64,000 nt of DNA from Mycobacteriales bacterium (GTDB lineage: Bacteria; Actinomycetota; Actinomycetes; JAFAQI01), in contig DATAUF010000002.1 in assembly GCA_036268405.1 (NCBI GenBank), positions 6,910 to 70,909 of the forward strand, written 5' to 3'. Of the stretch, positions 3,792 through 53,721 are shown one piece after another. Below the pieces are notes generated by a model. The model saw only the letters and a list, made by a program, of their open reading frames with translations, did not search any database and had not been told where the DNA came from. Numbering within the stretch: the stretch's first letter is position 1; the number at the start of each line of letters is the position of its first letter. The position numbers and the translations under genes are program-made.

Positions 3792-6167
3792 TCAAACAAC
3801 GGCGTCGAGAGCGTCCACGTCGATCGTCGTGCTCGACGATGCTGAGACCTTGCGGCCCAGATAGCGGAAGGTGAAGGTACGGCTGGCGAGGCTCGAGGCC
3901 AGCGAGCCATAGATCGGGATGGTCTCGACGTGTGTTGTCGAGCTGTAGAGGTCGATGGTCCTGAGCCGGGTCCCGGCACGATCGACCGCGAGCTTCCCGC
4001 GGTTCGGACCGACCTCGACGACGAGGTAGTAAATGCGACCGGTCGCCGTCGCCTTCGCGTAGGCACCGGGTGAGCCGGTGACGTCGATCGAGCCGCTGAT
4101 CGCCGCTGAGCTGACCTCTCGTTGCCACTTGCCATGTGTGACGAACTGCCTGTCATCGAGGGGTACGACGGCGGCGACGGTTTGGACGGTCGATGCTGTT
4201 CCCGCGGTGTCCACGGCCTCGGCGTAGAGCGCGTAGGTCGCACCGGCCTTGCCGGTGAAGGAATACGAGCCGGCTGCCGCGGCCGTGGTGGACCGATGGA
4301 CGACGCTCCCGGTCCCGGCGCGGACGATGGCGACAGCGACGGATTTCACGGCTGCGCCGCCGACCCCCTTGTCGGCGGACCATGTCGCGGTTACTTGTCG
4401 CGGGCTCGTCCTGCTGTGCGCATGGGTGAGGGACATGGCGGCTGTCAGCGTCGGCGCGACATCTGTGGCGTCCGATCCGAGCTGGCCGGCGATGGCCGGC
4501 CAAAGCGCGGCACCGAGGCCGCTGACCGTGTCGTAGCCGGACTGCGCGCCCACCGACGGGTCGGCGGACGCGGCTCCACTCGCTCCGTTGGTGCCGATGG
4601 TGATATCGCGGAAGGCGCCATCGTCCAGCGAGCTCGCCTCGTAGAGGAGGTCCTGGATGTCTCCGACGCCGGCTGTCGCGCCGCGGGCGGCGAGGGCATT
4701 GGTGAACAGCGCCGCACTGACGGGCGTCGCGAGGCTGGTGCCGCCGATCGCGAAGCTGGTTCCGTACTTTCGGCTGTCGGTCGGGTCGCTCGTGTAGATC
4801 TCGAAGCCGGTGGCCGGATCGCCGTCGGCGCTGATGTCGGGGACCAGCCGCTGCGTCGAGTCGGCGAACGGCGAGTCCGCGATGGCCGACTGGTAGCTCG
4901 GTGCGCTGAACACCGACGATGCGCCGCCTCCGCTGCCGCCGTTGGCCGCGCAGCTTGACGCCGACGTGCAGCTCCAGGCCTGCTCGCTCCAGTTGCCTCC
5001 GTCGTTCGGCGCCGGCGACCCGGTGGAGGTGAGCGTCGTTCCTCCGACCCCGACCACCTCAGGAGATGAGGCGGGGTAGTCCACCCCCGTCGAGTCGTTG
5101 TCGCAGTCGTAGACGCCCTGGTCGCCGGAAGAGGCGAAGACGGTCACGCCGGCAGCGACCAATGACGCCATGATCGGCTCGAGGGTGTTCTTGATGACGC
5201 TGGCGCCGGTATCTGCCTCACACTCTCCCCAGGTCACGGACAGCGCGGTGATGGCGCTGTCTCCGCCGGCGTACGCGTCGCCGTTCTGCAAAACGTCGTC
5301 GAGCACCTGGCTGAGCGCGTCGGCGTATCCGGCGGCGGTGTTGGGGGCGAAGTACGGCCGCTGGTGGGCGTAGGGATCAGTTGCCAGGATCGACTCCTGG
5401 TCGAGATCGACCTCCACGTCGCCGTCGTCCCTGGACGACGGCGAGGGCACGCTCTGCTGGTCGACCGGGACCGTGGTCACGTCGTTCGCCGCGTTGAAGC
5501 TGGTATCGCCGGTCTCGCTGGCGTAGTTCGTGAGATCGCTCTCGTTCCAGCCCGCAAGCTGGATCGTCGCGATGGTGAGCGTGCCAGCGGCGTCCTTGCC
5601 GCTGTCGGGACTCTCACCGGCCGCGGTCGACGCGGATGACGTGTACGCGTCGCGGAGCTCCTCGCCGTCCAACGTCGATGCGTTGTTCTGGAACGTCGCC
5701 GGCCCAGTGCTGGTCGGATACGCGACCGTCGCTACCGACCGAAGGTCGCCGGGCAGCTGCGGATAGGAGCCGGTTGACGCACGACGCTGGGCGCTGGTCG
5801 GATCAGAGGGCAGGGTCGGTCGCGAACCGAATCGGCTGGCGACGACGCCGGGCGTCGCACTGGCTGTGACCGACCACGCGGTCTGCGACGTGACAGATAG
5901 GCCGTCAGCGACGAGATCACTAGTTGCCGTGTCGCGCTCCGCTGCTGTCGGCAGAAGCTTCTCGACTGCTGCCACGCGCTGGGCATGGGTGAGGCCGCGT
6001 TTGGCCGCAAGATCGGCCAACGCGGTCGTGTCCGGAGCCTTGAGAAAGACGGTGACACTGATCTGTGGGGCCGCCTGTGCAGATGAGGCGCCGGTCACGG
6101 CTCCTCCGATGGTCAGCAGGGCGGCGGCGCCGAACGCCGTACCCCGGCGCAACCTTCGGTCACCCAT
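3792..6167 (-). CDS. Secreted S53 (sedolisin/kumamolisin-like) serine peptidase with C-terminal beta-sandwich domains
   Basis: Signal peptide MGDRRLRRGTAFGAAALLTIGGAVTGASSAQA; pro-domain; EVDLDQESI acid residues; GGTSLATP serine motif; about 250-aa C-terminal extension. Start is ATG 6167 (alternative GTG 6188). Confidence 0.82.
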   Translation of the reverse strand: MGDRRLRRGTAFGAAALLTIGGAVTGASSAQAAPQISVTVFLKAPDTTALADLAAKRGLTHAQRVAAVEKLLPTAAERDTATSDLVADGLSVTSQTAWSVTASATPGVVASRFGSRPTLPSDPTSAQRRASTGSYPQLPGDLRSVATVAYPTSTGPATFQNNASTLDGEELRDAYTSSASTAAGESPDSGKDAAGTLTIATIQLAGWNESDLTNYASETGDTSFNAANDVTTVPVDQQSVPSPSSRDDGDVEVDLDQESILATDPYAHQRPYFAPNTAAGYADALSQVLDDVLQNGDAYAGGDSAITALSVTWGECEADTGASVIKNTLEPIMASLVAAGVTVFASSGDQGVYDCDNDSTGVDYPASSPEVVGVGGTTLTSTGSPAPNDGGNWSEQAWSCTSASSCAANGGSGGGASSVFSAPSYQSAIADSPFADSTQRLVPDISADGDPATGFEIYTSDPTDSRKYGTSFAIGGTSLATPVSAALFTNALAARGATAGVGDIQDLLYEASSLDDGAFRDITIGTNGASGAASADPSVGAQSGYDTVSGLGAALWPAIAGQLGSDATDVAPTLTAAMSLTHAHSRTSPRQVTATWSADKGVGGAAVKSVAVAIVRAGTGSVVHRSTTAAAAGSYSFTGKAGATYALYAEAVDTAGTASTVQTVAAVVPLDDRQFVTHGKWQREVSSAAISGSIDVTGSPGAYAKATATGRIYYLVVEVGPNRGKLAVDRAGTRLRTIDLYSSTTHVETIPIYGSLASSLASRTFTFRYLGRKVSASSSTTIDVDALDAVV

Positions 6168-6478
6168 TCCTTCGATTGCCGACGTCACGGCTAGCGAGCA
6201 GTCGGCAGGTTGAGAGTGAGGCGTTCCGGCATCGGACGTCTGCTCCTTCGCTTGGTCATCGCAGGTCGCGGCAAGCGTGGGCGAGCTCTCTGAAGCGATG
6301 ATGTGCCGGGCCTGTGGACTTCCTGTATGGAGCGAAGAAGTGTGGTGAGTGCGTGCGCTCTGGCCCAATCCAAGCGCGGGCGGGCGGGAGTGACAGCCTT
6401 ACGGGTAGTCCGACTCAGCCCACCAGGAGACTATCGCTCTCGGCAAGAGCTTCGGTGGTGAGAAGAAAGGTGTGCGAG

Positions 6479-7669: not shown

Positions 7670-8854
7670 TCAAGCACCGACGATCGAGACGAACGACACA
7701 CAGCTGCCAGGTCGGCCGCCGAGGTTGTGGGTCATCGCCAGCCGCGGGTTGCTCAGCTGGCGCTCACCGGCCTCGCCGCGGAACTGTAGCCAGCACTCGT
7801 AGAGCATCCGGAGTCCACTCGCGCCCACCGGATGGCCGAAGGACTTCAGTCCGCCGTCGGGGTTGATCGGGAGTCGGCCATCGAGCTCGAAGTCGCCCGC
7901 GAGGATGTCCTTCCATGCCTGTCCTCGCTCGCTGAAGCCCATGTCCTCCATCAACACCAGCTCGGTCGGGGTGAAGCAGTCGTGCACCTCGGCGAAGGAC
8001 ACCTGCGATCGCGGGTCGGTGATTCCTGCCTGCTGATACGCGTCCCGGGCGGAGCGGACTACCTCAGGAAACGTCGTGAAGTCGTAGTCCGGGTCCACCG
8101 CACCTGCTCCTGGGCCGGCGACGAACGACAGCCCCTTCACGTACATGGGGCGCTCGGTGTAGTCCAGCGCGTCCTCGGCGCGGACGATCAGCGCGCATGC
8201 GGCGCCGTCGGATACCCCGGAGCAGTCGAAGACGCCGAGCCGGCCGGCGACCTTCGGAGCGTTCTCGATCTTCTCCTTCGTGACGACCGACCGGAACTGC
8301 GCCTTCGGATTGCGCGCGCCGTTGTAGTGGTTCTTCCAGGCGATATGCGTCATCGCTTCGCGCATCTGCTCCGGGTCCACGCCGTATTTCGCGCAGTACG
8401 CCGGGTCGAGCATCGAGAAGGCGGCGGGAGCCGTGACCGACAGCTCGGCGGCGGTGCCGTCGCCGGGCGGGTCACCGCGCAGCAAACCTGAGAACCCGGA
8501 GTCCTTCAGCTTCTCGACCCCGACCGCCATCACTCGGTCGTAGGCGCCGGAGGCCACGGCGTAGCACGCGTTGCGAAAGGCCTCAGATCCGGAGGCGCAG
8601 TAGTTCTCGACGCGTGTCACCGGTTTGTAGTCCAGTGCCAGGGCCTTGCTCAAGGTCAGCCCTGACTGGCCGGAGCCCAGGGTGCCGAGCCAGTAGGCGT
8701 CGACATCCACGCGGGGCAACGACGGTGTCGCGTCGAAGCACTCGCTCGTGGCATCGAGCAGCAGGTCCGTGACCGACTTCTCCCAGTGCTCGCCGAACGC
8801 GGTGCAGCCCATGCCGACGATGGCGACCCGGTCCGCGATCCCATTGCTTGCCAT
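7670..8854 (-). CDS. SCPx-type thiolase / lipid-transfer protein (Ltp-like)
   Basis: 394 aa; VAIVGMGCTAFG N-terminus; nucleophile motif ENYCASGSEA; 1-nt TGATG overlap with the upstream gene. Confidence 0.88.
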   Translation of the reverse strand: MASNGIADRVAIVGMGCTAFGEHWEKSVTDLLLDATSECFDATPSLPRVDVDAYWLGTLGSGQSGLTLSKALALDYKPVTRVENYCASGSEAFRNACYAVASGAYDRVMAVGVEKLKDSGFSGLLRGDPPGDGTAAELSVTAPAAFSMLDPAYCAKYGVDPEQMREAMTHIAWKNHYNGARNPKAQFRSVVTKEKIENAPKVAGRLGVFDCSGVSDGAACALIVRAEDALDYTERPMYVKGLSFVAGPGAGAVDPDYDFTTFPEVVRSARDAYQQAGITDPRSQVSFAEVHDCFTPTELVLMEDMGFSERGQAWKDILAGDFELDGRLPINPDGGLKSFGHPVGASGLRMLYECWLQFRGEAGERQLSNPRLAMTHNLGGRPGSCVSFVSIVGA

Positions 8855-10230
8855 CAGAGCAGCCTGGCCTTCCAGAAGTAGTTGTGCACTCCGCCCGCGG
8901 TGAAGAGCCGGCGAAACGTCACATCAACCCGTGCCCCGACCGCCAACCGCTGCGGGTCCGCGTCGGCGACCTCCAGGGCGCAGCGCCCGCCGCCGTCGAA
9001 GTCGACGACGGCACTGACCAGCGGCGGCGACGGTGAGAAAGCGAGCCGGTCGACGGTGTACGTCGCGATCGTGCCGGTGCGGTTCGCCACCGAGTACGCC
9101 GCCATCGCATCGATCGCGCCGCAGCCCTTGCACACCCGTTCAGGAGGGAGATGCACCATGCCGCAGCTCGTGCAGCGAGAGCCGGTCAGGTGGAACTTCC
9201 ACTGCTCGCCGCGGGCGCTCGGCGGCGCCGCCGGGCGATCGGGATCCGGTCGGCGCGGCGCCTCTCGCGTCAGCTGACCTCGCCAGGTGAGGGAGGTCGG
9301 GTACGAGACCGGCGCACCGGCGGCGAGCTGATCGACGACCGGCCGGCTCTGCCTGCGGCCGGCGAGCCGATCGGTCGCGCGCAGCACGAGTGCGTCGCAG
9401 CCATCGACGGCTGAGACGGCGAGGATCGTCTCGCCGGGCTTGGCCTGGTCAAGAACGGCAGCGAGCCCGATGCCAAGATCCGCTGCGCCGCAGTGCCCGA
9501 TTGGCGAACCGGTTACCTCGGCGGCGTCCGGGACGAGGGCTTGAGCGCGTTTCGCCACCCCGGTGTTCGGCGAGGTCACAACGGCGTGGTCGACCCCGGT
9601 CAGCCCGGCCGCATCGAGTGCTTGTCGCGCCGCTTGCCGGACGAGCGGCTCGTACGTCTCGAGCCCGAACCGCTCCTCCCATACCTCGGCATCGGGTCGG
9701 TCCGGAACGCGCCAGCGGTCGAGCAGTTCGGCCGTGAACGACACCACTGCGAGGACGTCGGCGATCGACTCGGCCGGATCACCGAAGAGCAAGGCGGCTG
9801 CGCCGTCGCCGCCGGCTCGTTCGTCCACCGAGCCCGGTTGGCCGATGCGGACGTCGGAGAGCAACGCGAGCCCGCCGCCGGCTAGTGCGGCACGTAACGC
9901 TGCCGTGCCTGACCGCGCCGAGCCCGCGACATCGGCGGCGAAGCAGTCAGTCGGCAGGCCGAGTGCGGCGTGGATCGCCGCGGCGTTGGTCTTGTCGAGG
10001 TAGGGCGGGGAGGTCGTCGCGAAGTAGATCGCCGAGACCGGCGCCGCGATGTCGGCGCCGAGAACGCGGCGGGCCGCCTCCACGGCCATCGTCGTCGCGT
10101 CTTCGTCGTAGCCGGCGACCACGCGGTCACCGCGACCATTGGCAGCGCCGAGCGCGGTTGCGATGTCCTCGCGCGACAACCGGTGATGGGGCAGGTACGT
10201 CGCATAGCCGACGAGGGCGAATCCGGTCAT
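8854..10230 (-). CDS. HMG-CoA synthase/KAS-III-like domain fused to DUF35 (Zn-ribbon + OB-fold)
   Basis: ATG 10230 (ATGA overlap with the thiolase stop). N-terminal 330 aa align by eye to HMGCS. C-terminus CTSCGMVHLPPERVCKGCG plus an OB-fold segment is typical of DUF35. Confidence 0.8.
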   Translation of the reverse strand: MTGFALVGYATYLPHHRLSREDIATALGAANGRGDRVVAGYDEDATTMAVEAARRVLGADIAAPVSAIYFATTSPPYLDKTNAAAIHAALGLPTDCFAADVAGSARSGTAALRAALAGGGLALLSDVRIGQPGSVDERAGGDGAAALLFGDPAESIADVLAVVSFTAELLDRWRVPDRPDAEVWEERFGLETYEPLVRQAARQALDAAGLTGVDHAVVTSPNTGVAKRAQALVPDAAEVTGSPIGHCGAADLGIGLAAVLDQAKPGETILAVSAVDGCDALVLRATDRLAGRRQSRPVVDQLAAGAPVSYPTSLTWRGQLTREAPRRPDPDRPAAPPSARGEQWKFHLTGSRCTSCGMVHLPPERVCKGCGAIDAMAAYSVANRTGTIATYTVDRLAFSPSPPLVSAVVDFDGGGRCALEVADADPQRLAVGARVDVTFRRLFTAGGVHNYFWKARLL

Positions 10231-11438
10231 GCGGCTTCGAACAGGGCGGCGATTCCCTGCCCTCCGCCGATGCACATCGTCTCCAGCGCGTAGCGGCCGC
10301 CACGGCGCCGCAGCTCGTGAAGCATCGTCGTGAGGATCCGTACGCCGGTCGCGCCGATCGGGTGGCCGAGCGAGATGCCGGACCCGTTGACGTTGAGTCG
10401 TGAGTCGACGTCGCTGAGGGCGACGCCCCAGCCCTGCAGGACCGCGAGCACCTGGACCGCGAACGCCTCGTTGACCTCGATCAGGTCGAGGTCGTCGAAG
10501 CCGATGCCGGTGCGGGCGAACAGCTTGGCCACCGCGGGCACCGGACCGATGCCCATCGTTGCCGGCTCGCAACCGACCGCTGCCCAGTCCCGCAGGAACC
10601 CGATCGGTTCGAGGCCGAGCTCGTCAAGCTTGTCCTCGGCGACCACGAGGCAAGCTGCTGCCGCATCGTTCTGCTGCGCCGCGTTGCCCGCGGTCACCAC
10701 CCCGCCACGGGTCATCGGACGGAGTCCGGCGAGGACGTCGAGGGTCGAGTCCGCCCGGACGCCCTCGTCGTGATCGAAGCTCACGGGCTCGCCCCGGCGC
10801 TGTGGCACCTCGACCGCCACCACCTCGGCGTCGAACGCGCCGTCTTTCCAGGCGGCGCTGGCGCGTTCGTGGCTGCGCAGCGCAAAGGCGTCGGCCGCTT
10901 CGCGACTGATCGCGTACTCGCGCGCGAGATTCTCGGCGGTCTCGATCATTCCGGTGATCGGCCCGAACCGCCATTCGGGCTGCGAGAGCTGCCGGCCGCG
11001 TTCGAGCCGGTCGTAGAGCGTCACGTTGCCCGAGCGGCTGCCCCACCGGGCCGTCGTCGAGACGTACTCGATGTTGCTCATGCTCTCGACGCCACCCGCG
11101 ATGACCATGTCGGCGGCACCGGTCTGCACCATCATCGCGGCGGTGATGACGGCCTGAAGTCCGCCGCCACAGCGTCGGTCGATCTGCAAACCGGGCACCG
11201 CGATGGGCAGACCTGCGTGCAGCGCGGCCCACCGTCCGATGCACGGCGCCTCGGAGTTGGCGTACGACTGGGCGATCACGACGTCGTCGATCCGCTCGGG
11301 GTCGGCGCCGGATGCTTCCACGACCGCGCTGATCACCCGGGCGGCGAGGTCGGCCGCCGGCACCGGTCGCAACGTGCCGCCGAAGCTGCCGACCGCGGTA
11401 CGCCGGGGTGCGACGATCGCCGCACGGCCGGCGCTCAC
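10227..11438 (-). CDS. Acetyl-CoA C-acyltransferase (thiolase II family)
   Basis: QIDRRCGGGLQAV nucleophile region; NGSGISLGHPIGATG and MCIGGGQGIA C-terminal motifs. GTG 11438 chosen (GTGA overlap with the upstream stop); track ORF extends to 11504. Confidence 0.9.
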   Translation of the reverse strand: MSAGRAAIVAPRRTAVGSFGGTLRPVPAADLAARVISAVVEASGADPERIDDVVIAQSYANSEAPCIGRWAALHAGLPIAVPGLQIDRRCGGGLQAVITAAMMVQTGAADMVIAGGVESMSNIEYVSTTARWGSRSGNVTLYDRLERGRQLSQPEWRFGPITGMIETAENLAREYAISREAADAFALRSHERASAAWKDGAFDAEVVAVEVPQRRGEPVSFDHDEGVRADSTLDVLAGLRPMTRGGVVTAGNAAQQNDAAAACLVVAEDKLDELGLEPIGFLRDWAAVGCEPATMGIGPVPAVAKLFARTGIGFDDLDLIEVNEAFAVQVLAVLQGWGVALSDVDSRLNVNGSGISLGHPIGATGVRILTTMLHELRRRGGRYALETMCIGGGQGIAALFEAA

Positions 11439-11659
11439 GATTCGTCTCGCCAGCGGTCCGAGCCGGGGTCGAGCAGCTTCGCGAGGTTCCCGTCCTTGAG
11501 CCACACGACCGTCTCGAGCTCGAGTGCGTCGAGATAGCGGACCCGACCGGTGCGGGTGTCCTCGAGCCGCAGCCGGGGGCCGTTCGCGTCGACATCGATG
11601 GCGACCGACACCGATGCGAACTCACTGTCGACGACGCCCGGCAGCGCGCCGCCAGTCAA
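11435..11659 (-). CDS. Hypothetical small acidic protein (74 aa)
   Basis: TTG start overlapping the beta-subunit stop (TTGA), stop overlapping the thiolase GTG. Third-codon positions almost all G/C. No recognizable motif and no cysteines. Confidence 0.55.
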   Translation of the reverse strand: MTGGALPGVVDSEFASVSVAIDVDANGPRLRLEDTRTGRVRYLDALELETVVWLKDGNLAKLLDPGSDRWRDES

Positions 11660-12168
11660 ATCAGGAAGCCCAACGTCGCGAGTGGCTTGTCGAGCCCGAC
11701 CAGCACGACCTTCTTATACGCCAGCCGGATCTCGCCATCGACGGCCCGCAGCCGGTACGTCGTGCGTCCACCCCATAGCTCGCTGCCACGGGCCTTGGAC
11801 TCGAAGAGCAGGAAGTTCGCCGCCACCTCGACCTCCGCCGTTGCGGGATCCTCGCCGATCACCTCGACGTTGGAGATCACTCGGCGCAGTTGTGACGCGG
11901 GCGCTTGTGCATAGCGCTTGCCCGTGCGCAGCTGCTTGAGCCTGGTCGAGATGCGGCTGCGGTTGTCGAAGATCACCGAGACCGTGGTGTTGGGGTCGCT
12001 GTCGGGATCGTCGGCGGGCACCCAATAGATCGCGTCGTCGGTCCACAACGACTCCCACGCGTCGTAGTCCGACTCGTCGGCATGCCGCGCCTCGCGGTAG
12101 AGGAACTGCTCGATCCGATCCCGCGTGAACGTCGGATGGTCAGTGGCGGGCGGTGCGCTGCTGATCAT
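11656..12168 (-). CDS. Aromatic-ring-hydroxylating dioxygenase beta subunit (NTF2/SnoaL-like)
   Basis: 170 aa; IEQFLYREARHADESDYDAWESLWTDDAIYWVP is typical of the beta subunit; ATGA overlap with the alpha subunit. Confidence 0.88.
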   Translation of the reverse strand: MISSAPPATDHPTFTRDRIEQFLYREARHADESDYDAWESLWTDDAIYWVPADDPDSDPNTTVSVIFDNRSRISTRLKQLRTGKRYAQAPASQLRRVISNVEVIGEDPATAEVEVAANFLLFESKARGSELWGGRTTYRLRAVDGEIRLAYKKVVLVGLDKPLATLGFLI

Positions 12169-13436
12169 GAGGCATCCATCAACGCTCGGTAGTGAGACCA
12201 GAAACCGCGCATGCCGACCTCGTCGGTCGCGCCGCCGATGGTGAACCCGTCGTCGTCGACGCTTTCGCGGTTGGTGCCCCGACTCACCTCGAGCCATTCC
12301 GGGGATCGGGCCGCGACGCCGCGCTGGTTGCGCTCGTACATCTCGGTGTCGTCGGCAAGCAACATTCCGGCTGGTCCGACCGACCCTATCGACTGAGAGA
12401 GCATCCTGCGGTTGAGCTCTCCCGAGCCGGTCAGCTGCACGGCCGTCGAGTACTGCACGCAGTCGTCGACCGCGACCGGCTGGATGTTGAAAACCTGGAT
12501 CTCGGCGACGAAGAGGTTCGGAAAGATCATGACGTGCGGGCCGCCCTCGATCATGATTCGCTCGGCGTCCTCGCCGTAGGCCGCGCGCATTGCGGCCGCA
12601 TACTCCGGCACCCGTTCCGGCGTCGTCCCGAACCATCGCATCGGCTCGGCATAGTTGCGAAACTCCGGGCGCAGGTCGTTCTCGCTGTGTCCGTTGCCGA
12701 GGTTTCGGGTGACCGCGGTCGACTTCTCGCTGTAGAGCGCACCGATCGGGCTGCCTGTCACGCCAAAGATCGAGGCGTGGACGAACTGCGGGTGATAGCC
12801 GTCGGTCTCGTTCTCGGCGAGCAGCTTCCAGTTGGCCTGCGTGCGGTGCTTGAGCCACCCGGCGGTCAGCTCCACCTTGCCCACCGGCGATAGCCGGGCA
12901 AGCCGGTCGAGCTCGCCAGCCGCGGCGCCGAGGTGATCGATCAGTGAGGGTCCGTCGGTGGCAAAGCTGCCGAACACGAATCCCTGGTACGACGCGACGC
13001 GCGGCACAGACGCCATGCGCAGGTCCAGCTTGCCCTTGCCGCCGTAGCCCTGGTGGTAGGGGTAGCCGAGCAGCTCGCCGGTGTTGCGGTAGGTCCAGCC
13101 GTGATATGGGCAACGGAACGACTTGGAGTTGCCCTTGGCCGAATCGCACACCTGGTTGCCGCGATGCGCGCAGCGGTTGAGCAGCAGGTGGACCTGTCTG
13201 TCGCTGTCTCGGGTCATGATCACGTCTTGCGTTCCGAGTGTTTTTCGGACGTAGTCGCCGGGCTCGCCGACCTCGCTGTCGTGGCCCACGAACACCCAGG
13301 TGGTATGCCAGATCTTCGCGAGTTCCTCAGTGAAGATCTCCGGGTTCGTGTAGAGCGACCCGTGCACCTGGCGCGGCCGGATGAGTTGGTCGAACCGGCT
13401 CGGCGCGGTCGTTGCGGGTTCGAGGAGTTCGGTCAC
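12165..13436 (-). CDS. Rieske [2Fe-2S] aromatic-ring-hydroxylating oxygenase alpha subunit
   Basis: CAHRGNQV...CPYHGWTY Rieske motif; ENETDGYHPQFVH mononuclear iron motif; GTG start with GGGAG 8 nt upstream. Confidence 0.93.
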   Translation of the reverse strand: MTELLEPATTAPSRFDQLIRPRQVHGSLYTNPEIFTEELAKIWHTTWVFVGHDSEVGEPGDYVRKTLGTQDVIMTRDSDRQVHLLLNRCAHRGNQVCDSAKGNSKSFRCPYHGWTYRNTGELLGYPYHQGYGGKGKLDLRMASVPRVASYQGFVFGSFATDGPSLIDHLGAAAGELDRLARLSPVGKVELTAGWLKHRTQANWKLLAENETDGYHPQFVHASIFGVTGSPIGALYSEKSTAVTRNLGNGHSENDLRPEFRNYAEPMRWFGTTPERVPEYAAAMRAAYGEDAERIMIEGGPHVMIFPNLFVAEIQVFNIQPVAVDDCVQYSTAVQLTGSGELNRRMLSQSIGSVGPAGMLLADDTEMYERNQRGVAARSPEWLEVSRGTNRESVDDDGFTIGGATDEVGMRGFWSHYRALMDAS

Positions 13437-13497: not shown

Positions 13498-15111
13498 TCA
13501 GGGCAGGTCGGGACATTCGTCGCGGTCCAGCAGGTCAGCGAGACGGAACTTCTGCACCTTGCCGGTCGGGGTTCGAGGCAAGGCGTCGAGCCGATACCAA
13601 TCCGATGGCGTCTTGTGTGGGGCGAGATGGCTCCGACAGTGCGCGGTCAACCGCTCGGCGATCCCGGGCGCGGCGTCGCCGACCGGCGTGACGATGGCGA
13701 CGACTCGTTCGCCGAGCCGCTCGTCCGCGATGCCGACCACGGCGGCGTCGGCGACCTCGGGATGGGAGAGCAGGCAGGCTTCGATCTCGACGGGGGAGAC
13801 ATTCTCGCCCCCGCGGATGATCAGCTCTTTGAGTCGTCCGGTCAGCGTGATGTAGCCCGCAGCGTCCATCGACCCAAGATCGCCGGTGTGGACGAACCCG
13901 TCAGCGTCCACCGTTGCAGCGGTGGCCTGCGGGTCGTCGAGGTAGCAGATCAGCTGCTGGTAGCCGCGGGCGCAGATCTCGCCCGGTACTCCGAGCGGCT
14001 GCACGGCACCGGTCGCCGGATTCAAGATCGCGCAGTCCACGTGAGGAAGCGGCCGGCCAACGGTGTGCAGGTGTTCGCGATGCGGATCGCCGGGTCGAGT
14101 GGCGGTCAGCACCGGCGCGAGCTCGGTCTGCCCGAACACGTTGATGACGGACGCACCGAAGGTCCGCTCGGCGGCCTCGACCATCGCCGGTGGCACGACG
14201 GACGCGCCACCGAGGATGGTGTGCAGCTGCGGCGCCGGCTCGTTCGACGCGGCCTGTGCGGCGAGCACTGCGCCGAGGATCGTGGGCACGTAGAACAGCA
14301 CGTCGGCCTGCTCATCGCGCAGCGTCGCGAGAACGCTGACCGGCTCGAACTGCTCGACGAGCACCGCAGTGCCTGCGACCCACAGCGGTCCCAGCGTCGA
14401 GATGACGCAGCCGGCGGTATGGAACATCGGCAGCGGGTTGACCGCAGTTGCACCGTGCGGGACGCCGACCGCCTCCAACGTCAGCTTCGCGACGTTGACC
14501 AGTGAGCGGTGGCGTAGCAGTACGCCTTTCGGATTGCCGGTTGTGCCCGACGTGTACTGCAGCATCACCGCCGCATCGGGGTCAGTCGGTGACCGCACGT
14601 CGAGCGAAGGGTCGATGCCGGCGGCTTGCCAGCGGTCAGCCTCGCTCAGGCTGATCACGGTGCGCAGCGCCGGGCAGTCGCGACGTACTTCTGCCGCGAC
14701 GCCTGCCATGTCGTAGTCACGGCTCCGGTCGGCATGGACCAGTACGACGGCCTTGGAGTGGGTCAGCGCGTAGGTCAGCTCGGCCCCCCGCAACGCGGGG
14801 TTGATTGCGACGAGTACGACGCCGCTGAGTGCGGCGCCGTACTGGAGCACTGGCCATTCCACGACGTTGGGTGCCCACACCGCGACTGGCTCGCCGGGCT
14901 CGGTAAGCGCGGCGAGCGCGCTTGCCACCCGCTGCGCGCGCTCATAGAGCTCGCGGTAGGTCAGCCGGACAACGGAGCCGGTGCCGTGTTCGGTCCCGAC
15001 CAATGCGGGCGCGTCGGGCTGGGTCGAAGCCCGCTCGGCGAGCAGGCCGCCGACCGTGAAATCGACGAGCGGCGCGCGCTCGTCCTTCGGCCAGAACGAC
15101 GTCGTCAGCAC
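13498..15111 (-). CDS. AMP-dependent acyl-CoA synthetase/ligase (FadD-like)
   Basis: YTSGTTGNPKGV AMP-binding motif; GTG start overlapping the upstream TAG by 1 nt. Confidence 0.92.
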   Translation of the reverse strand: MLTTSFWPKDERAPLVDFTVGGLLAERASTQPDAPALVGTEHGTGSVVRLTYRELYERAQRVASALAALTEPGEPVAVWAPNVVEWPVLQYGAALSGVVLVAINPALRGAELTYALTHSKAVVLVHADRSRDYDMAGVAAEVRRDCPALRTVISLSEADRWQAAGIDPSLDVRSPTDPDAAVMLQYTSGTTGNPKGVLLRHRSLVNVAKLTLEAVGVPHGATAVNPLPMFHTAGCVISTLGPLWVAGTAVLVEQFEPVSVLATLRDEQADVLFYVPTILGAVLAAQAASNEPAPQLHTILGGASVVPPAMVEAAERTFGASVINVFGQTELAPVLTATRPGDPHREHLHTVGRPLPHVDCAILNPATGAVQPLGVPGEICARGYQQLICYLDDPQATAATVDADGFVHTGDLGSMDAAGYITLTGRLKELIIRGGENVSPVEIEACLLSHPEVADAAVVGIADERLGERVVAIVTPVGDAAPGIAERLTAHCRSHLAPHKTPSDWYRLDALPRTPTGKVQKFRLADLLDRDECPDLP

Positions 15112-15896
15112 TATTGGCCCCGAAACTGCGGGGTACGACGGGCCGCAAACGCTGCGACGCCCTCGGCGAAGTCGGCGGTGTCGAACAGTCGAGCCTGGGT
15201 CTCGACCTCGTGATCGAGGATCTCGAACCGGTCAGTGGCCGCCTGCGACAGCAGGGACTTGATCGCGGCCAAGGCGAGCGGCGGGCCGGCCGCGAGCCGG
15301 TGGGCGTCGGCGAGTGCGCTGGTCAAGGCGCTTCCGGGCTCGACCAGGGAATCGATCAGCCCAATCTCGAACGCCGCCGTTGCGGCGATCCGGCCGGGCA
15401 GCATCAACATCTGCTTCGCGGCGGCCTGCCCCAACCGGGCGGGGAGCGTGGCGAAGATGCCCATGTCACCGGCCAGACCGACGTTGGCGAATGCCGCACC
15501 GAACTGCGCGTCGGTCGCCGAGACGATGCGGTCGCACGCCAGCGCGAGCGACAGGCCGGCGCCGAGCGCGAAACCTTCGACGGCGGCGACGACCGGTGTG
15601 CCGCCGGTCCAAATCGCCCGCACCACTCGCTGCGCCGCCTCGGCCCGCGGGCGGGTGAGCTCGGGCGCCTGACGTTCCATCGTGGAGATGTCACCGCCGG
15701 CGCAGAACGTGCCGCCCGCTCCCGTGATGACGATCGCGCGGACCGCGGTGTCGGCCATGGCGGCCTCGAGGTGTTCGGCGAGCTCCACCCTCAGCGGCAA
15801 GTCGATCGCGTTCTTGACCTTGGGCCGGTTGAGCGTCAGGACTCGCACCGGCCCGTCGTCGCGCGTCAGGACTGTCGGCTCGCCCGCGTCGGTCAT
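15111..15896 (-). CDS. Enoyl-CoA hydratase/isomerase
   Basis: 261 aa; ITGAGGTFCAGGDI oxyanion motif. Confidence 0.9.
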   Translation of the reverse strand: MTDAGEPTVLTRDDGPVRVLTLNRPKVKNAIDLPLRVELAEHLEAAMADTAVRAIVITGAGGTFCAGGDISTMERQAPELTRPRAEAAQRVVRAIWTGGTPVVAAVEGFALGAGLSLALACDRIVSATDAQFGAAFANVGLAGDMGIFATLPARLGQAAAKQMLMLPGRIAATAAFEIGLIDSLVEPGSALTSALADAHRLAAGPPLALAAIKSLLSQAATDRFEILDHEVETQARLFDTADFAEGVAAFAARRTPQFRGQ

Positions 15897-17540: not shown

Positions 17541-18338
17541 GTGGATTTAGGCCTCGACGGCGCCCGCGTCGTGGTGACCGGCGGCGCATCGAACATCGGC
17601 CGTGGCATCGTCCACGCGTTCGCTGCCGAACACGCACGAATCGTCATCGCGGATCTTGACGGCGTGCAGGCAGCGAGGGTGCAGGCCGAGGCGACCGATC
17701 TCGGTGCGGCCGAGGTCGTCATGGCGATCGAGGACCTGACGATCGACGGTGCCCCCGAACGGTCGGTGGCGGCCGCGGCAGATCGTTGGGGCGGGATCGA
17801 CGTGCTGGTCAACAACGCCGGTTGGAGCGTGCCGGGCTTTCTCGTCGAGGACACCGACCGCGCGCGCTGGCAGCGGCTCGTCGAGGTCAACCTGTTCACC
17901 GCGATCGCCTGCACCCAGGCCGCCATCCCGTCGATGCGTGAGGCCGGCGCCGGTTCCGTCATCTACATCGCCAGCGATGCGGCGTTCGGACAGATCCGCC
18001 AGGCGGTGTACGGCGCCACCAAGGCGGCGGTGCTCGCGCTCGCCCGCACCACAGCCCGCGAGCACGGGCGGCACGGCATCCGCTCGAACGTGGTGTGCCC
18101 GGGCCTCGTCGTACCTGAAGGACCCGAAGCGGTCGGCCAGTCGAGCCTGTGGGCGGTCGGCCAGGACGCGGTGTTCAACGAGAGCCAGATCGACTACCTG
18201 CGCAAGGACACCCCACTGCGCCGTCTCACCGAAGCCAAGGACGTCGCCGGCGCGGTGTTGTGGTTCGCCTCGCCGACCGCGGCCCGCCAGGTCACCGGCC
18301 AGGTGATCTCGGTCAGCGGCGGCTACACGATGCCCTAG
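17541..18338 (+). CDS. SDR family oxidoreductase
   Basis: VVVTGGASNIGRG, NNAG, YGATKAA motifs; GTG start with GGGAG upstream. Confidence 0.9.
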   Translation: MDLGLDGARVVVTGGASNIGRGIVHAFAAEHARIVIADLDGVQAARVQAEATDLGAAEVVMAIEDLTIDGAPERSVAAAADRWGGIDVLVNNAGWSVPGFLVEDTDRARWQRLVEVNLFTAIACTQAAIPSMREAGAGSVIYIASDAAFGQIRQAVYGATKAAVLALARTTAREHGRHGIRSNVVCPGLVVPEGPEAVGQSSLWAVGQDAVFNESQIDYLRKDTPLRRLTEAKDVAGAVLWFASPTAARQVTGQVISVSGGYTMP

Positions 18339-18363
18339 GAAGCTGGGACGCAGTCGGGAGTAT

Positions 18364-18768
18364 TCAGGCGACCACGAGGTCGTCGCGGCCGTCCGCCTTC
18401 AACCGGTCGATGTAGACCGGGTACAGCGACTTGCCGAGCGGCGCCAGTTTGAGCAGCTGCGCGACGTTGCCCTCGACCTTGACCTTGCCGCGTGCCATCG
18501 CGAACGGCAGGTTGACCTTGCCCTGCCAGTAGGCGTTCTGCATCTCGGCACTCATCGTCATCGTCGCCGACACCACCGAGTCGGTGTCACCGGGGATCAC
18601 TTTGTGGTTGCCCATGTCGAGGACGAACGCCGACTCGGGATCGGTGGAGATGACCCGCAGCACGATGCCGGTCGCCGCCAGCTTCGGACCGATCTCGGGG
18701 TCGGCGAACGCGGTCTCAAAGATGCCGCCGATGTAGTGGACGACCTCATCAGCGTTGCTGAACGGCAT
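18364..18768 (-). CDS. SCP2 sterol/lipid-binding domain protein
   Basis: ATG 18768; 134 aa with AYWQGKVNLPFAMARGKVKVEGN, typical of the SCP2 C-terminus. Confidence 0.8.
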   Translation of the reverse strand: MPFSNADEVVHYIGGIFETAFADPEIGPKLAATGIVLRVISTDPESAFVLDMGNHKVIPGDTDSVVSATMTMSAEMQNAYWQGKVNLPFAMARGKVKVEGNVAQLLKLAPLGKSLYPVYIDRLKADGRDDLVVA

Positions 18769-18809
18769 GTCGGAATCCTTCTTTGGGTGGGAGGTCGAGG
18801 TCGGCCTGG

Positions 18810-19592
18810 TCAGATCTCCGGAGCGGGGACGATGCCGGTCAACACCGCGCCTGCGATGCCGCCGTCGGCGATGATGTTGTGGCCGTTGATCCATCCGGAT
18901 TCAGATGAGGCCAGGAACGCCACGACCCTTGCGATGTCGAGCGGTGTCGCATGGCGGCCGACGAGCTCCCTTACTCCGTCGATGATGTCCTTGCCCATCG
19001 ACTCCTCGAAGTCGACGAGGATCGGCGTCTCGACCGGGCCCGGGCTGACCGCGTTCATCCGCACGCCTGCCTCGACCAGACCTGTGGCCATCGCCATCGT
19101 GTAGACGGTGAGGGCCTCCTTGGAGAAGTTGTACATGTTGCCTTGTTGCGGGTGGTCCTTGAACCACACGACGCCTTCTTCATAGGTCTCGGCGCCCATG
19201 AGGTCGCGAATAGCGTCGATGCGATCCGGCCAGCCGAAGCCAGCCGTGGAGGCGACGTTGACGATGGCGCCACCTGGCCGGAGCCGGTCGAAGAACGCCT
19301 CGGCGAGGTGGCGCGCGGCAAGGAAGTTCACCCGGAAGACAGCCTCTGCGGGATGCGTGCCGGGCAGGCCGGCGACGTTGCACAGCACGTCGAACTCGCC
19401 GTCGAGCTGGCTGAGTGCGCCCTCGATGCTGGCAAGGTCGGTCAGGTCGACCGGGACGTGCGCCTCAACGGGCGCGGTCGGGGAGTTGCGGTCGAGACTC
19501 ACAACACTCGCGCCGCGCTCCATGAGCAGACGCGCCACCGCGTCACCGGTACCGGAGGCAGCGCCCGTTACGACGCATCGCTTTCCATCCAC
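18810..19592 (-). CDS. SDR family oxidoreductase
   Basis: GTG 19592; CVVTGAASGTG and YNFSKEA motifs. Confidence 0.85.
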   Translation of the reverse strand: MDGKRCVVTGAASGTGDAVARLLMERGASVVSLDRNSPTAPVEAHVPVDLTDLASIEGALSQLDGEFDVLCNVAGLPGTHPAEAVFRVNFLAARHLAEAFFDRLRPGGAIVNVASTAGFGWPDRIDAIRDLMGAETYEEGVVWFKDHPQQGNMYNFSKEALTVYTMAMATGLVEAGVRMNAVSPGPVETPILVDFEESMGKDIIDGVRELVGRHATPLDIARVVAFLASSESGWINGHNIIADGGIAGAVLTGIVPAPEI

Positions 19593-19594
19593 GG

Positions 19595-19613
19595 CTTTTA
19601 ATCTAGAGTATAA
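19595..19613 (-). promoter_or_regulatory. AT-rich 19-nt element, copy C (TTATACTCTAGATTAAAAG)
   Basis: Reverse complement of cttttaatctagagtataa; ends 2 nt before GTG 19592. Quasi-palindromic around CTAG. Shared with the divergent ALDH-P450-FadD operon. Confidence 0.45.
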
Positions 19614-19631
19614 AAGGCGGTGGGTGTCAAC

Positions 19632-21092
19632 ATGACGAATCACGTTGGCGCGGACTCGGAGGCGAATGTGACAGCAGGCGCAACTACCGGCACCGTGACG
19701 TCGAATGCGGCCTTGGCCGCCCCGGCGCCTGGGGAGATCGAGCAGGTCATGCGGCGGCTGCGTGCAACCGCTGCGAGCGGCCGCACTCGACCGCTTGCCT
19801 GGCGGCTGAAGCAGCTCGCCGGCATCGATCGACTACTCGCTGAACGCGAGACGGAGATCGCCGAAGCGCTTGGAGCCGACCTCGGTCGGACCGGCTTCGA
19901 CGCCTGGCTCGGTGACATCGCGTCGACCCGCGCGGAGGCGTCGTACGCCCGCAAGCACTTGCGGCGCTGGATGCGGCCGCGCCGGGCCTCTGTGCCGATG
20001 AGCATGCGGCCGGGCCGCGCCTACTACGCGTACGAGCCGCTCGGCGTTGTCCTCGTCATCGGTCCGTGGAACTACCCGGTGTATCTCACGCTGGGCCCGC
20101 TCATCGGAGCGTTGGCCGCGGGCAACTGCGCGGTCGTCAAGCCCTCCGAACACGCCCCCGCAACGTCGGCTCTGCTGACGCGACTGCTCCCGGAGTACCT
20201 CGACGCGGACGCAGTCGCCGTTGTCGAGGGCGATGCGCGCGCGACCCAAGCGCTCATGGAGCAGGGCTTCGACCACGCCTTCTTCACCGGCGGACCGGAG
20301 ATCGGCAAGCTCGTCATGGCGGCGGCCGCTCCTACCCTCACCCCGGTCACCCTCGAGCTCGGTGGCAAGTCGCCGGCGATCGTCAGTCGCACCGCCGATC
20401 CCGCCATCGCAGCGCGGCGCATCGTGTGGACGAAGTTCATCAACTCCGGCCAGACCTGCATCGCGCCGGACTACGTTCTCGTCGACGCCACGGTCAAAGA
20501 CCTGTTCGTGCGCGAGCTCGGTACCGCGCTGAGCCAGATGCGGGTGGGCGCACCTCAGTACGCGCCCATCGTCAACCGCCGCCAGTACGACCGTCTCGCC
20601 GGTCTGCTCGCCGACAGCGGTGGCGATGTCGCGGTGGGCGGCGGCACCGATGCTGCAACCGGTGCCATCGAGCCGACCGTGATCGTCGAGCCCGACCCGG
20701 CGTCGCCGGTGATGCAGGAGGAGATCTTCGGCCCGATCCTGCCGGTGCTCGGCACAGCCTCGCTCGATGCGGCGATCGAGTTCGTCGGCGCTCGCGCGAA
20801 GCCGCTTGCGGCGTACCTGTTCAGTGCGAGCCGTGCCGAGCAGCGCCGGGCTACCGCCGAGATCAACGCGGGCGGCATGGTGATCAACCAAGCCTCGTTG
20901 CACGTGTTGGTCCCGTCCCTGCCGTTCGGCGGCGTGGGCAACAGCGGCATGGGCGCCTACCACGGAGAGTGGGGCTTCCAGACCTTCAGCCACCGCAAGG
21001 CCGTGTTGGTGAAACGACAGCGGCCGGACCTGTCGCTGATGTACCCGCCGTACACCGCACGCACCGAGCGACTGTTGCGACGAGTGTTCTGA
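19632..21092 (+). CDS. NAD(P)-dependent aldehyde dehydrogenase (class-3/fatty aldehyde type)
   Basis: ELGGKSPAIV and FINSGQTCIAPDYVLV catalytic motifs; ATG 19632 (track start GTG 19620). Confidence 0.92.
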   Translation: MTNHVGADSEANVTAGATTGTVTSNAALAAPAPGEIEQVMRRLRATAASGRTRPLAWRLKQLAGIDRLLAERETEIAEALGADLGRTGFDAWLGDIASTRAEASYARKHLRRWMRPRRASVPMSMRPGRAYYAYEPLGVVLVIGPWNYPVYLTLGPLIGALAAGNCAVVKPSEHAPATSALLTRLLPEYLDADAVAVVEGDARATQALMEQGFDHAFFTGGPEIGKLVMAAAAPTLTPVTLELGGKSPAIVSRTADPAIAARRIVWTKFINSGQTCIAPDYVLVDATVKDLFVRELGTALSQMRVGAPQYAPIVNRRQYDRLAGLLADSGGDVAVGGGTDAATGAIEPTVIVEPDPASPVMQEEIFGPILPVLGTASLDAAIEFVGARAKPLAAYLFSASRAEQRRATAEINAGGMVINQASLHVLVPSLPFGGVGNSGMGAYHGEWGFQTFSHRKAVLVKRQRPDLSLMYPPYTARTERLLRRVF

Positions 21093-21129
21093 TGACGGCT
21101 GTTCTGACGATCGCAGGGAGGATCCGCCC

Positions 21130-22383
21130 ATGAGTTCCGAGCGTCCGCCGTTCGACCCGGTGTCGGTGTCTCCGCTGTCCTTCTGGGACAGCACCGCCGA
21201 GGAGCGCGACGCCTCGTTCAAGATCCTTCGGGACGAGCGCCCGGTGAGCTGGCATCCGCCGCTCGAGGGCTCGCTGATGGAGGCCGAGCAGGACGGGTTC
21301 TGGGCGGTATCGCGCCACGAAGACATCGCGGCGATCAGCAAGAATCCGGAAGTGTTCTGCTCGGGCCGGGGCGTGATGATCGAAGAGGTGCCAGAGGACC
21401 TTCTCGAGGCGGCCCAGTCCTTCCTGGCGATGGACGCGCCTCGGCACGGCGCGCTGCGTCGACTCGTGAGTGTGGCGTTCACGCCCAAGCAGATCGCGAA
21501 GATCGACGAGCAGATCAAGGCGCAGGCACGGCGGATTGTCGACGACTTGCTCGACACGACCGACGGCGACTTCGTCACCCAGGTGTCGAAGCGGCTTCCG
21601 ATGTGGACGATCTACGAGCTGATCGGTTTGCCGGAGGAGCTCCGCGAAGAGGCTGCGCATCACGCCGACGGAATGGTCTCCTGGGCGGACGCGGACGTTG
21701 CAGCGGGCCGCGAGCCGGGCGAGGTGCTCAACGACAGCCTGGTCGGCCTGATCACCATCGCGTTCGAGATGGTCGAGGACCGCAAGACGCATCCGCGCGA
21801 CGACATCCTGACCAACCTGGTGCAGGCGGAGGTTGACGGTCAGCGGCTTACCGACGAGGAGATAGCGAGCTTCTTCGTCCTGCTCTCGGTGGCGGGCAAC
21901 GACACCACCCGCAACTCGACAACGCTCGGCATGAAATACCTCTGCGACTTCCCGGAGCAGCGCAAGCTGTTGGCTGACAACCCCGAAGGCCTGATTCAGC
22001 CGGCGGCCGAAGAGATCGTCCGCTACGCGACGCCGGTGATGACGTTCCGGCGTACCGCGACGCGCGACGTCGAGCTGCACGGCCAGCAGATCCGCGAAGG
22101 CGACTGGGTCGTGACGCTGTTCTCCTCGGCGAATCGCGACGAGCGGGAGTTCATGCATCCGGGTGAGTTCGACATCACCCGCACGCCGAATCGGCACGTC
22201 GGGTTCGGTGGCGGCGGCCCGCACTTCTGCATGGGCAGCATGCTGGCTCGTACGCAGCTGCGGTCGCTGTTCACTGAGCTTGCGACCCGGGCTCCGGGCC
22301 TCGAGCTCGGCGAGCCGAACTATCTGGTGGGCAACTTCGTCCACGCGGTCAAGTCGGTTCCGTACCAGCTGAACGCTCGCTGA
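21130..22383 (+). CDS. Cytochrome P450
   Basis: FGGGGPHFCMGSMLAR heme-thiolate loop; VAGNDTT I-helix; EIVRY ExxR; GGGAGGA RBS. Confidence 0.95.
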   Translation: MSSERPPFDPVSVSPLSFWDSTAEERDASFKILRDERPVSWHPPLEGSLMEAEQDGFWAVSRHEDIAAISKNPEVFCSGRGVMIEEVPEDLLEAAQSFLAMDAPRHGALRRLVSVAFTPKQIAKIDEQIKAQARRIVDDLLDTTDGDFVTQVSKRLPMWTIYELIGLPEELREEAAHHADGMVSWADADVAAGREPGEVLNDSLVGLITIAFEMVEDRKTHPRDDILTNLVQAEVDGQRLTDEEIASFFVLLSVAGNDTTRNSTTLGMKYLCDFPEQRKLLADNPEGLIQPAAEEIVRYATPVMTFRRTATRDVELHGQQIREGDWVVTLFSSANRDEREFMHPGEFDITRTPNRHVGFGGGGPHFCMGSMLARTQLRSLFTELATRAPGLELGEPNYLVGNFVHAVKSVPYQLNAR

Positions 22384-22384
22384 C

Positions 22385-25062: not shown

Positions 25063-25072
25063 GGTTCCTCCT

Positions 25073-26847: not shown

Positions 26848-26859
26848 GGCGGGTCCTTT

Positions 26860-26873
26860 CGGTGCTTGCACCG
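26860..26873. promoter_or_regulatory. Palindrome CGGTGC-TT-GCACCG in the 5' region of the acyl-CoA dehydrogenase/TetR/thiolase operon
   Basis: Read directly at 26860-26873, immediately upstream of the RBS of the minus-strand gene; operator or leader hairpin. Confidence 0.3.
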
Positions 26874-26888
26874 TTGTCGACGTACGGA

Positions 26889-26907
26889 TTCTAACCTATA
26901 TTAAAAC
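26889..26907 (+). promoter_or_regulatory. AT-rich 19-nt element, copy B (TTCTAACCTATATTAAAAC)
   Basis: Ends 1 nt before ATG 26909; contains TATATT 6 nt upstream of the start codon. Confidence 0.5.
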
Positions 26908-26908
26908 C

Positions 26909-53667: not shown

Positions 53668-53721
53668 ATTGCCACTCGACGTCGATCGGAAACCAGGGAT
53701 GACCGTGGTAGATACCGAGGT

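Follow-up and report, generated by a model that had tools for sequence, protein, structure and literature searches.

What function is left to a 3-hydroxy-3-methylglutaryl-coenzyme A (HMG-CoA) synthase that carries an alanine in place of its cysteine nucleophile, is fused to a DUF35 module and lies between two different thiolases? The question is raised by a 64,000-nucleotide (nt) stretch of DNA from a Mycobacteriales bacterium (contig DATAUF010000002.1 of assembly GCA_036268405.1; hereafter the window, with positions counted from its first letter), which encodes such a fusion protein of 458 amino acids (aa) on its minus strand (8854..10230). The first-pass annotation of this region took the protein for a pseudoenzyme scaffold of a thiolase or retro-aldol complex. 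The thiolase half of that proposal has held, with the lost catalytic residues, a conserved partner and a published relative in its favor; the retro-aldol half is disfavored by the cysteine and the HDxF motif that the partner keeps. We consider it probable that the fusion is a non-catalytic partner, composed of an HMG-CoA synthase (HMGS)-like domain and DUF35, of the thiolase encoded immediately downstream, and that the two together form a thiolytic module. The evidence lies in the identity of the domains, the loss of the catalytic tetrad, the invariance of the thiolase motifs, the adjacency and translational coupling of the two genes, and the conservation of the operon around them.

The N-terminal domain is of the archaeal HMGS type. 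Residues 5-321 match the model NF003274/PRK04262 (150.6 bits, E = 5.6e-44), and the match to the bacterial mvaS-type model is weak (30.6 bits; NCBIfam). PF01154, PF08540 and ACP_syn_III gave no match at E <= 0.1 in the Pfam scan; since these HMGS and FabH models miss the domain, it can be seen only through the archaeal NCBIfam model, PDB sequences and fold comparison. The Pfam profiles that the first-pass annotation had proposed to consult are thus positive for DUF35 and uninformative for HMGS and FabH. In the PDB, the domain is closest to 6esq_I (phmmer, E = 1.8e-24), followed by PhlA (9skh_A and 5m3k_A). Sequence and structure agree on the order 6esq_I, PhlA, MucA: an AlphaFold2 (AF2) model built on 50 homologues, with a predicted local distance difference test score (pLDDT) of 86.2 and a predicted template modelling score of 0.88, retrieves 6esq_I, 9skh, 5m3k and 9vbo as its top Foldseek matches and is confident except for linker residues 328-337. 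The HMGS-like domain, initially recognized by eye, is thereby borne out.

The C-terminal part corresponds to DUF35 as originally assigned, comprising a four-cysteine ribbon and then an OB-fold, each of which exceeds its Pfam gathering score (PF12172, 25.3 vs 23.2 bits; PF01796, 46.5 vs 27.1 bits). The ribbon cysteines C353, C356, C367 and C370 are invariant among the 50 sequences, and about 100 of 114 diverse representatives have them. The nearest PDB matches of this part are 6esq_E and PhlB, with a weaker one to the DUF35 domain of ChsH2 (6ok1_B). Between the two parts runs a Pro/Arg-rich linker, whose residues 328-337 have pLDDT values below 50. Within and just before it, W316, R317, E323, P325, R326, R327, P328, P330, P336, R340, W344 and K345 are invariant among the 50 sequences, and R317, R327 and P328 are still common among representatives of 33-60% identity. 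Because the linker is partly predicted to be disordered yet rich in invariant residues, it is likely an interface element, by analogy with PhlB's N-terminal tail. The start of the protein follows its 458-aa homologues, which share its initiator methionine; a 572-aa open reading frame (ORF) beginning with TTG and reaching position 10572 was rejected, as it overlaps the frame of the upstream thiolase and the homologues start at MTGF.

Neither the score nor the active site of the N-terminal domain is that of a functional HMGS. The fusion lies below both equivalog cut-offs (244 bits for NF003274; 107.1 vs 353 bits for TIGR00748), and the catalytic tetrad E-C-H-N, as defined by the authors of PMC12960953, is wholly absent (T73/A105/T219/H246). 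In the HMMER alignment, archaeal EFACKAGT, with the nucleophile Cys114, faces AGSARSGT of the fusion, which places Ala105 (nt 9916-9918) in the cysteine column, exactly where the by-eye alignment had put it. The catalytic glutamate (Glu82; archaeal SESHPY) is replaced by Thr73 (TTSPPY), the catalytic histidine (VFHQPN) by Thr219 (VVTSPN), and the catalytic asparagine (GNTYSG) by His246 (GHCGAA). The histidine of a DHAVV motif had been thought to be retained from the active site, but this residue, His215, aligns with a tyrosine, and the catalytic position is Thr219; the correction makes the case for a pseudoenzyme stronger. Cys96 of the PTDCF motif, the residue that could have restored a nucleophile, was rejected, being outside the nucleophile column and conserved in only 5 of 121 close homologues.

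The loss extends across the family. Position 105 is occupied by Ala in 111 of these 121 homologues, by Gly in four, and by Val and Ser in three each. In 81 proteins from 80 species genomes, the Cys column holds A/V/G/P/T/L, the Glu column T/S/A/V and the His column T/S/V/A; in 113 full-length representatives of 33-60% identity, the Cys column holds L/A/V/P/T, mostly Leu. Cys, Glu and His are absent at their three columns from all of the approximately 315 homologues checked, and proteobacterial relatives behave alike; the Asn column keeps Asn in about a third of the 113 representatives. Three distant homologues have a cysteine one residue before the nucleophile column (CLR). Other positions are invariant family-wide (DED at 42-44, D100, E137 and W173-R174); as true archaeal HMGS has them too, these residues look like features of the fold or of an interface, judging by their conservation, and not like a new active site.

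The thiolase encoded downstream has an intact active site, as had been noted for its ENYCASG motif, and is assigned to the SCP2/archaeal acetoacetyl-CoA thiolase (ACAT) type. Its motifs comprise C86-A-S (Cys codon at 8597-8599), H291-D-C-F294 and G340-H341-P; Cys86, HDCF and GH(P) are invariant in 72 of 72 orthologues. The nearest PDB entry is the archaeal acyl-CoA acyltransferase 4yzo, and the next is the complex-forming archaeal acetoacetyl-CoA thiolase 6esq_A (E = 5.8e-52), which has the same AEVHDCF motif. The match to archaeal ACAT amounts to 180 bits, against 95-107 bits for PhlC and a likewise much lower score for BbsB. This thiolase gene lies directly 3' of the fusion gene in 73 of the 77 loci with enough sequence, and here the two genes overlap by one nucleotide (TGATG, at 8854). 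The fusion gene is also coupled to the upstream thiolase, as reported earlier, through an ATGA overlap at 10227-10230. That upstream enzyme is, as first described, a classical thiolase (thiolase II for short); its catalytic motifs are present, and its gene directly precedes that of the fusion in just 31 of 76 loci. Of the two flanking thiolases emphasized by the first-pass annotation, only the SCP2-type one is therefore an almost constant companion: the conserved unit is the fusion plus this thiolase, and thiolase II, though part of the operon, is outside the module. The same pair, in the same order, occurs on an oestrogen-degradation plasmid of Novosphingobium and in Azoarcus.

A class with this architecture was described in January 2026 in the study that also solved the MucABC structure (Nat Commun; PMC12960953). 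Of 1,030 bacterial HMGS/ACAT/DUF35 loci mined there, 1,001 had no biosynthetic neighbors. The Pseudomonas fluorescens complex characterized in the study, PfACAT/HMGS-DUF35, consists of a fused tetrad-less HMGS-DUF35 protein and an ACAT that keeps Cys, HDxF and GHx; it thiolyses acetoacetyl-CoA in vitro, is inactivated by mutation of the HDxF His, forms no HMG-CoA and makes no acetoacetyl-CoA from acetyl-CoA (PMC12960953). The window pair resembles it in having HMGS and DUF35 in one polypeptide, in tetrad loss, in the CxS, HDxF and GHx motifs of the ACAT and, among the window ORFs covered by the Pfam scans, in the lack of adjacent polyketide synthase (PKS) or non-ribosomal peptide synthetase (NRPS) genes. 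PhlACB (PpATase, 5M3K/5MG5; CsATase, 9SKH) and MucABC (9VBO/9VBT), both Friedel-Crafts acyltransferases, likewise combine a Cys- and Glu-less, non-catalytic HMGS-like subunit with a DUF35 bridge and catalysis in a thiolase fold. PhlA lacks Cys and Glu and is non-catalytic, and together with the DUF35 protein PhlB it is required for the activity of PhlC in a Phl(A2C2)2B4 complex (PMC6392133). These enzymes, however, consist of three separate polypeptides, have lost HDxF (PhlC and MucB; PMC12960953), are linked to type III PKS or NRPS-PKS clusters and acylate phenols or tetramates, whereas in the window the A and B parts are fused and HDCF is kept. Since the pair has the sequence features of the PfACAT class, shares with PhlACB/MucABC the Cys- and Glu-less subunit but not the loss of HDxF, and differs from the retro-aldolases Ltp2 and IpfD in its invariant Cys86, it belongs to the published class, and the concept itself is not new.

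The archaeal thiolase/HMGS/DUF35 complex (6esq) is the best match of all three modules in both sequence and fold, but there the HMGS is active (Glu82, Cys114, His and Asn), DUF35 is a separate 130-aa protein and the role is anabolic, in the mevalonate pathway. In BbsAB, the benzoylsuccinyl-CoA thiolase, and in the steroid aldolase Ltp2-ChsH2(DUF35), DUF35 docks an enzyme of the thiolase fold whose substrates are bulky acyl-CoAs. HDxF is retained in BbsB; neither system has an HMGS-like domain, the DUF35 of ChsH2 is fused to a MaoC hydratase, and Ltp2 lacks the Cys. By homology with all these systems, complex formation, reaction direction and the kind of substrate, possibly a bulky acyl-CoA, can be proposed for the window pair. 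The fusion would assemble with the SCP2-type thiolase much as in the archaeal, PhlACB and MucABC complexes. Catalysis would reside in the thiolase only, with Cys86 as the acyl carrier, His291 of HDCF and His341 of GHP. The fusion would be an obligate structural subunit, supporting folding or solubility, setting the oligomer architecture and lining one wall of a shared CoA/substrate chamber, and the complex would cleave a 3-oxoacyl-CoA by CoA-dependent thiolysis (retro-Claisen).

Some points weigh against this assignment. The AF2 model covers the single fusion chain alone, and acetoacetyl-CoA, the in vitro substrate of the P. fluorescens relative, may not be the physiological one. Moreover, polar residues close to the lost active site, namely R106, D214, H215 and H246, are kept within the actinobacterial clade, so the former HMGS pocket may, on this pattern of conservation, retain a residual binding or catalytic role. 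In its strongest form this would make the HMGS-like domain a living enzyme, a Cys-independent hydrolase, decarboxylase, hydratase or retro-aldolase that uses R106, D214, H215 or H246 on the substrate or product of the thiolase. R106 is indeed conserved family-wide and nearly invariant, and an activity of some other kind was also speculated on by the authors who described the edc gene cluster for oestrogen degradation and left the role of its HMGS-like gene unexplained (PMC7793797). We regard such an enzyme as unlikely: R106 corresponds to the Lys beside the nucleophile in true HMGS and in the non-catalytic PhlA, D214, H215 and H246 are variable once the wider family is considered, Leu, Ala, Val or Pro usually takes the place of the nucleophile, PhlA and MucA have no catalytic role, and the family-wide invariant residues appear structural.

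The resemblance to PhlACB and MucABC could instead be taken functionally, the complex being a Friedel-Crafts-type C-acyltransferase or deacylase for a phenolic ketone produced by the Rieske oxygenase of the same operon. The three-domain set and the Cys-less HMGS-like subunit are shared, and an aromatic-ring oxygenase is at hand. This is nevertheless very unlikely, considering that PhlC and MucB have lost the HDxF motif that is invariant here, that the thiolase scores much higher with archaeal ACAT than with PhlC and that the window ORFs scanned gave no Pfam domains of PKS or NRPS type.

The oxygenase invites a different comparison. IpfABDEF (ibuprofen) and IadCDEFGH (indole-3-acetate) also combine Rieske alpha and beta subunits, a CoA ligase and a thiolase-fold enzyme that cleaves a C-C bond, and they remove an acyl side chain. 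The module could accordingly be imagined as a retro-aldolase like Ltp2-ChsH2(DUF35) or IpfDE, acting on a 3-hydroxyacyl-CoA derived from ring dioxygenation; the Rieske subunits are 46-47% identical to IpfA/IpfB, and ipf has an adjoining pair of DUF35 and thiolase-fold genes. However, Ipf and Iad lack the HMGS-like domain, IpfE is a free DUF35 protein, and the identity of IpfD is just 26%, with an alignment confined to the C-terminal part and YDAF in place of HDCF. The ipf analogy was thus rejected for the thiolase module and kept for the oxygenase only. As Ltp2-type aldolases lack the Cys nucleophile (PMC8913865), whereas Cys86 and His291 are invariant here, a retro-aldolase is highly improbable. 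As separate leads, and not as evidence, the ibuprofen degrader Patulibacter medicamentivorans I11 has related genes, and in M. aubagnense HPB1.1, another actinobacterium that degrades ibuprofen, the best IpfA and IpfB matches are 45% and 44% identical.

An anabolic complex, one that drives Claisen condensation through channelling in the manner of the archaeal synthesis of mevalonate or fatty acids, has in its favor that archaeal KT/DUF35 complexes do so and that the thiolase reaction is reversible. It deserves as little credence as the retro-aldolase, for the downstream enzyme that would pull the reaction, HMGS, is dead, PfACAT/HMGS-DUF35 failed to condense acetyl-CoA (PMC12960953), and the surroundings are catabolic (CoA ligase, crotonases and oxygenase). 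Finally, that thiolase II, coupled through its ATGA overlap, should be the DUF35 partner in place of the SCP2-type thiolase is scarcely credible in view of the adjacency counts given above and of the SCP2/archaeal type of all structurally known DUF35 partners found (6esq_A, PhlC, BbsB and Ltp2).

The proposed thiolytic module stands within a longer gene series, and its setting is the less known part of the picture. Eleven co-directional minus-strand genes, from three crotonases through a ferredoxin, make up the operon (Table 1), and every junction from the Rieske alpha subunit to the last thiolase overlaps by 1-4 nt.

Table 1. Genes of the operon and domains of the fusion protein, with positions in the window
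Feature	Position	Strand	Basis and remarks
Crotonase-family gene	16711..~17484 (start approximate)	-	PF00378
Crotonase-family gene	15900..~16703 (start approximate)	-	PF00378
Crotonase-family gene	15111..15896	-	PF00378
AMP-forming acyl-CoA ligase	13498..15111	-	PF00501/PF13193; NCBIfam matches all below cut-offs
Rieske oxygenase, alpha subunit	12165..13436	-	PF00355/PF00848; 45.6% identical to IpfA
Rieske oxygenase, beta subunit	11656..12168	-	PF00866; 47% identical to IpfB
orf74, small protein of 74 codons	11435..11659	-	Gene call on JGI contig; no Pfam match
Classical thiolase (thiolase II/I type), catalytic motifs present	10227..11438	-	PF00108/PF02803; NF004853, 650 bits
Fusion gene (tetrad-less HMGS-like domain, linker and DUF35; 458 aa)	8854..10230	-	
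HMGS-like domain, residues 1-321	9268..10230	-	NF003274, PDB alignments, Foldseek
Pro/Arg-rich linker, residues 322-346	9193..9267	-	pLDDT and column conservation
DUF35 rubredoxin-like Zn ribbon, residues 347-372	9115..9192	-	PF12172
DUF35 OB-fold, residues 382-440	8911..9087	-	PF01796
SCP2/archaeal-ACAT-type thiolase, predicted catalytic partner	7670..8854	-	PF22691; NF004810, 614.8 bits
Single-cluster ferredoxin, 64 aa	7442..7636	-	PF13459/PF13370

IpfA and IpfB of the ibuprofen plasmid pIBU218 are the best characterized Rieske relatives found, and the solved structure nearest to the alpha subunit is IadD, an indole-3-acetate dioxygenase (7yls/9o71). The crotonases, members of the enoyl-CoA hydratase/isomerase family, have their best NCBIfam matches, all below cut-off, with oxepin-CoA hydrolase (alt-type), PaaG and EchA19. 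This gene content points to a dedicated CoA-dependent catabolic pathway, and the acid that it degrades as a CoA ester probably bears, besides its carboxyl group, an aromatic or alicyclic portion. Between the oxygenase and the thiolases, orf74 overlaps both neighbors by 4 nt. Copies that are 50-87% identical sit directly after the Rieske beta gene in 45 loci, so orf74 tracks the oxygenase and not the thiolase module; from this distribution of sequences, it may be an accessory protein of the oxygenase. The ferredoxin gene begins 33 nt downstream of the SCP2-type thiolase gene, and its product is 62% identical to a ferredoxin near the cluster of Rhodococcus opacus PD630. A tblastn search of the window revealed no ferredoxin reductase like that of R. 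opacus, so within the window the Rieske oxygenase lacks part of its electron supply.

The full operon is kept across the Actinomycetota, among them Nocardia, Streptomyces, Mycobacterium, Rhodococcus, Gordonia and Nocardioides, in some lineages with a second ligase and a CoA-transferase added; in 42 of 80 loci, an orthologue of the Rieske alpha subunit is encoded no more than 10 kb away. The nearest genome locus, in a Mycobacteriales metagenome-assembled genome (L001), has an identical gene order, and the window sequence itself is present only in soil-metagenome DNA runs. No literature specific to this actinobacterial operon was found. In contrast to the P. fluorescens pair, which is from another phylum and is seen by its authors as an 'evolutionary intermediate' that no pathway has recruited so far (PMC12960953), the window pair belongs to a catabolic operon that is both conserved and translationally coupled.

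The edc cluster offers a second catabolic setting. In Novosphingobium tardaugens (EGO55_13555/13550) and on plasmid p3 of Novosphingobium sp. ES2-1, a fusion protein 33.5% identical to that of the window, which also lacks the tetrad and reads LR at the Cys site, has an HDCF thiolase encoded right after it within a beta-oxidation-like catabolic cluster, as in the window. The edc pathway differs in that it degrades the A/B rings of steroids and has no Rieske alpha/beta pair. On plasmid p3 (locus L084, 7989..10546), the fusion and the HDCF thiolase are accompanied by a separate pair of a lipid-transfer protein and a free DUF35 protein; with both pairs in one cluster, that edc pathway has two DUF35-dependent thiolase-fold modules.

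Given the conserved operon, the kinship of its Rieske subunits with those of side-chain-removal pathways and the homologue in the edc cluster, we argue for reading the fused complexes as thiolase modules recruited to catabolism, which qualifies the view of an unrecruited evolutionary intermediate. A bolder proposal, possible but doubtful, is that the operon encodes a hybrid aerobic CoA-dependent pathway, described nowhere yet, by which an arylalkanoic or alicyclic acid resembling ibuprofen, auxins or naphthenic acids would be degraded. The Rieske dioxygenase would act on the free acid or its CoA ester and oxygenate at or next to the side-chain carbon, crotonases and short-chain dehydrogenases/reductases (SDRs) would process the product, and the fusion-thiolase complex would carry out the committed C-C cleavage. 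The emptied HMGS pocket, its nucleophile exchanged for a small or hydrophobic residue, would take on a new role as the chamber in which the bulky acyl group is bound. On this proposal, the fused complexes would be thiolases built for catabolism and not 'unrecruited evolutionary intermediates'.

The fusion family is large, with 519 clusters at 50% identity (E <= 1e-30), and is present in at least 544 species genomes; its members are usually annotated as "HMG-CoA synthase" or "OB-fold domain-containing protein". The former label is misleading, because no examined member can perform HMGS chemistry. Viewing the fusion and the thiolase as one module would correct this annotation and account for an unassigned gene in pathways for steroids and aromatic acids, and the conserved actinobacterial operon with its IpfA-like dioxygenase would become a candidate route for the degradation of arylalkanoate pollutants or plant hormones. 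What the window adds to the published class is context and not a new principle.

The operon varies between orf74 and thiolase II, where many Nocardia, Streptomyces and Rhodococcus operons have an extra gene encoding about 430 aa, often together with a second CoA ligase. By eye, its product (e.g., L004, 7389..8738, and equivalent sites in about 25 loci) resembles acetyl-CoA hydrolases/transferases. In Azoarcus KH32C, a gene annotated as a member of the acetyl-CoA hydrolase/transferase family follows the fusion-thiolase pair (L085, 10645..11922). The extra gene is absent from the window and its closest relatives (L001, L021-L023 and L029).

A second block of lipid/CoA metabolism genes adjoins the operon in the window (17541..28090). 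It comprises a divergent BadH-like SDR (17541..18338), an SCP2-domain protein (18364..18894), a second SDR, an aldehyde dehydrogenase, a cytochrome P450 (21130..22383), a further CoA ligase, a further classical thiolase (23908..25143) and two acyl-CoA dehydrogenases. On the other side of the operon, a minus-strand ORF of up to 858 aa (3792..6368) includes a motif, GTSLATP, that recalls serine peptidases of the subtilisin or sedolisin type; beyond a sub-threshold match to SdrD_B, it has no significant Pfam match at E <= 0.01. Farther away, the little-studied domains DUF7065 and/or DUF7064 occur in three window proteins (36177..37064, 38751..39803 and 52747..55704), one of which, 985 aa long, adds a kinase domain of the APH/EcKL type.

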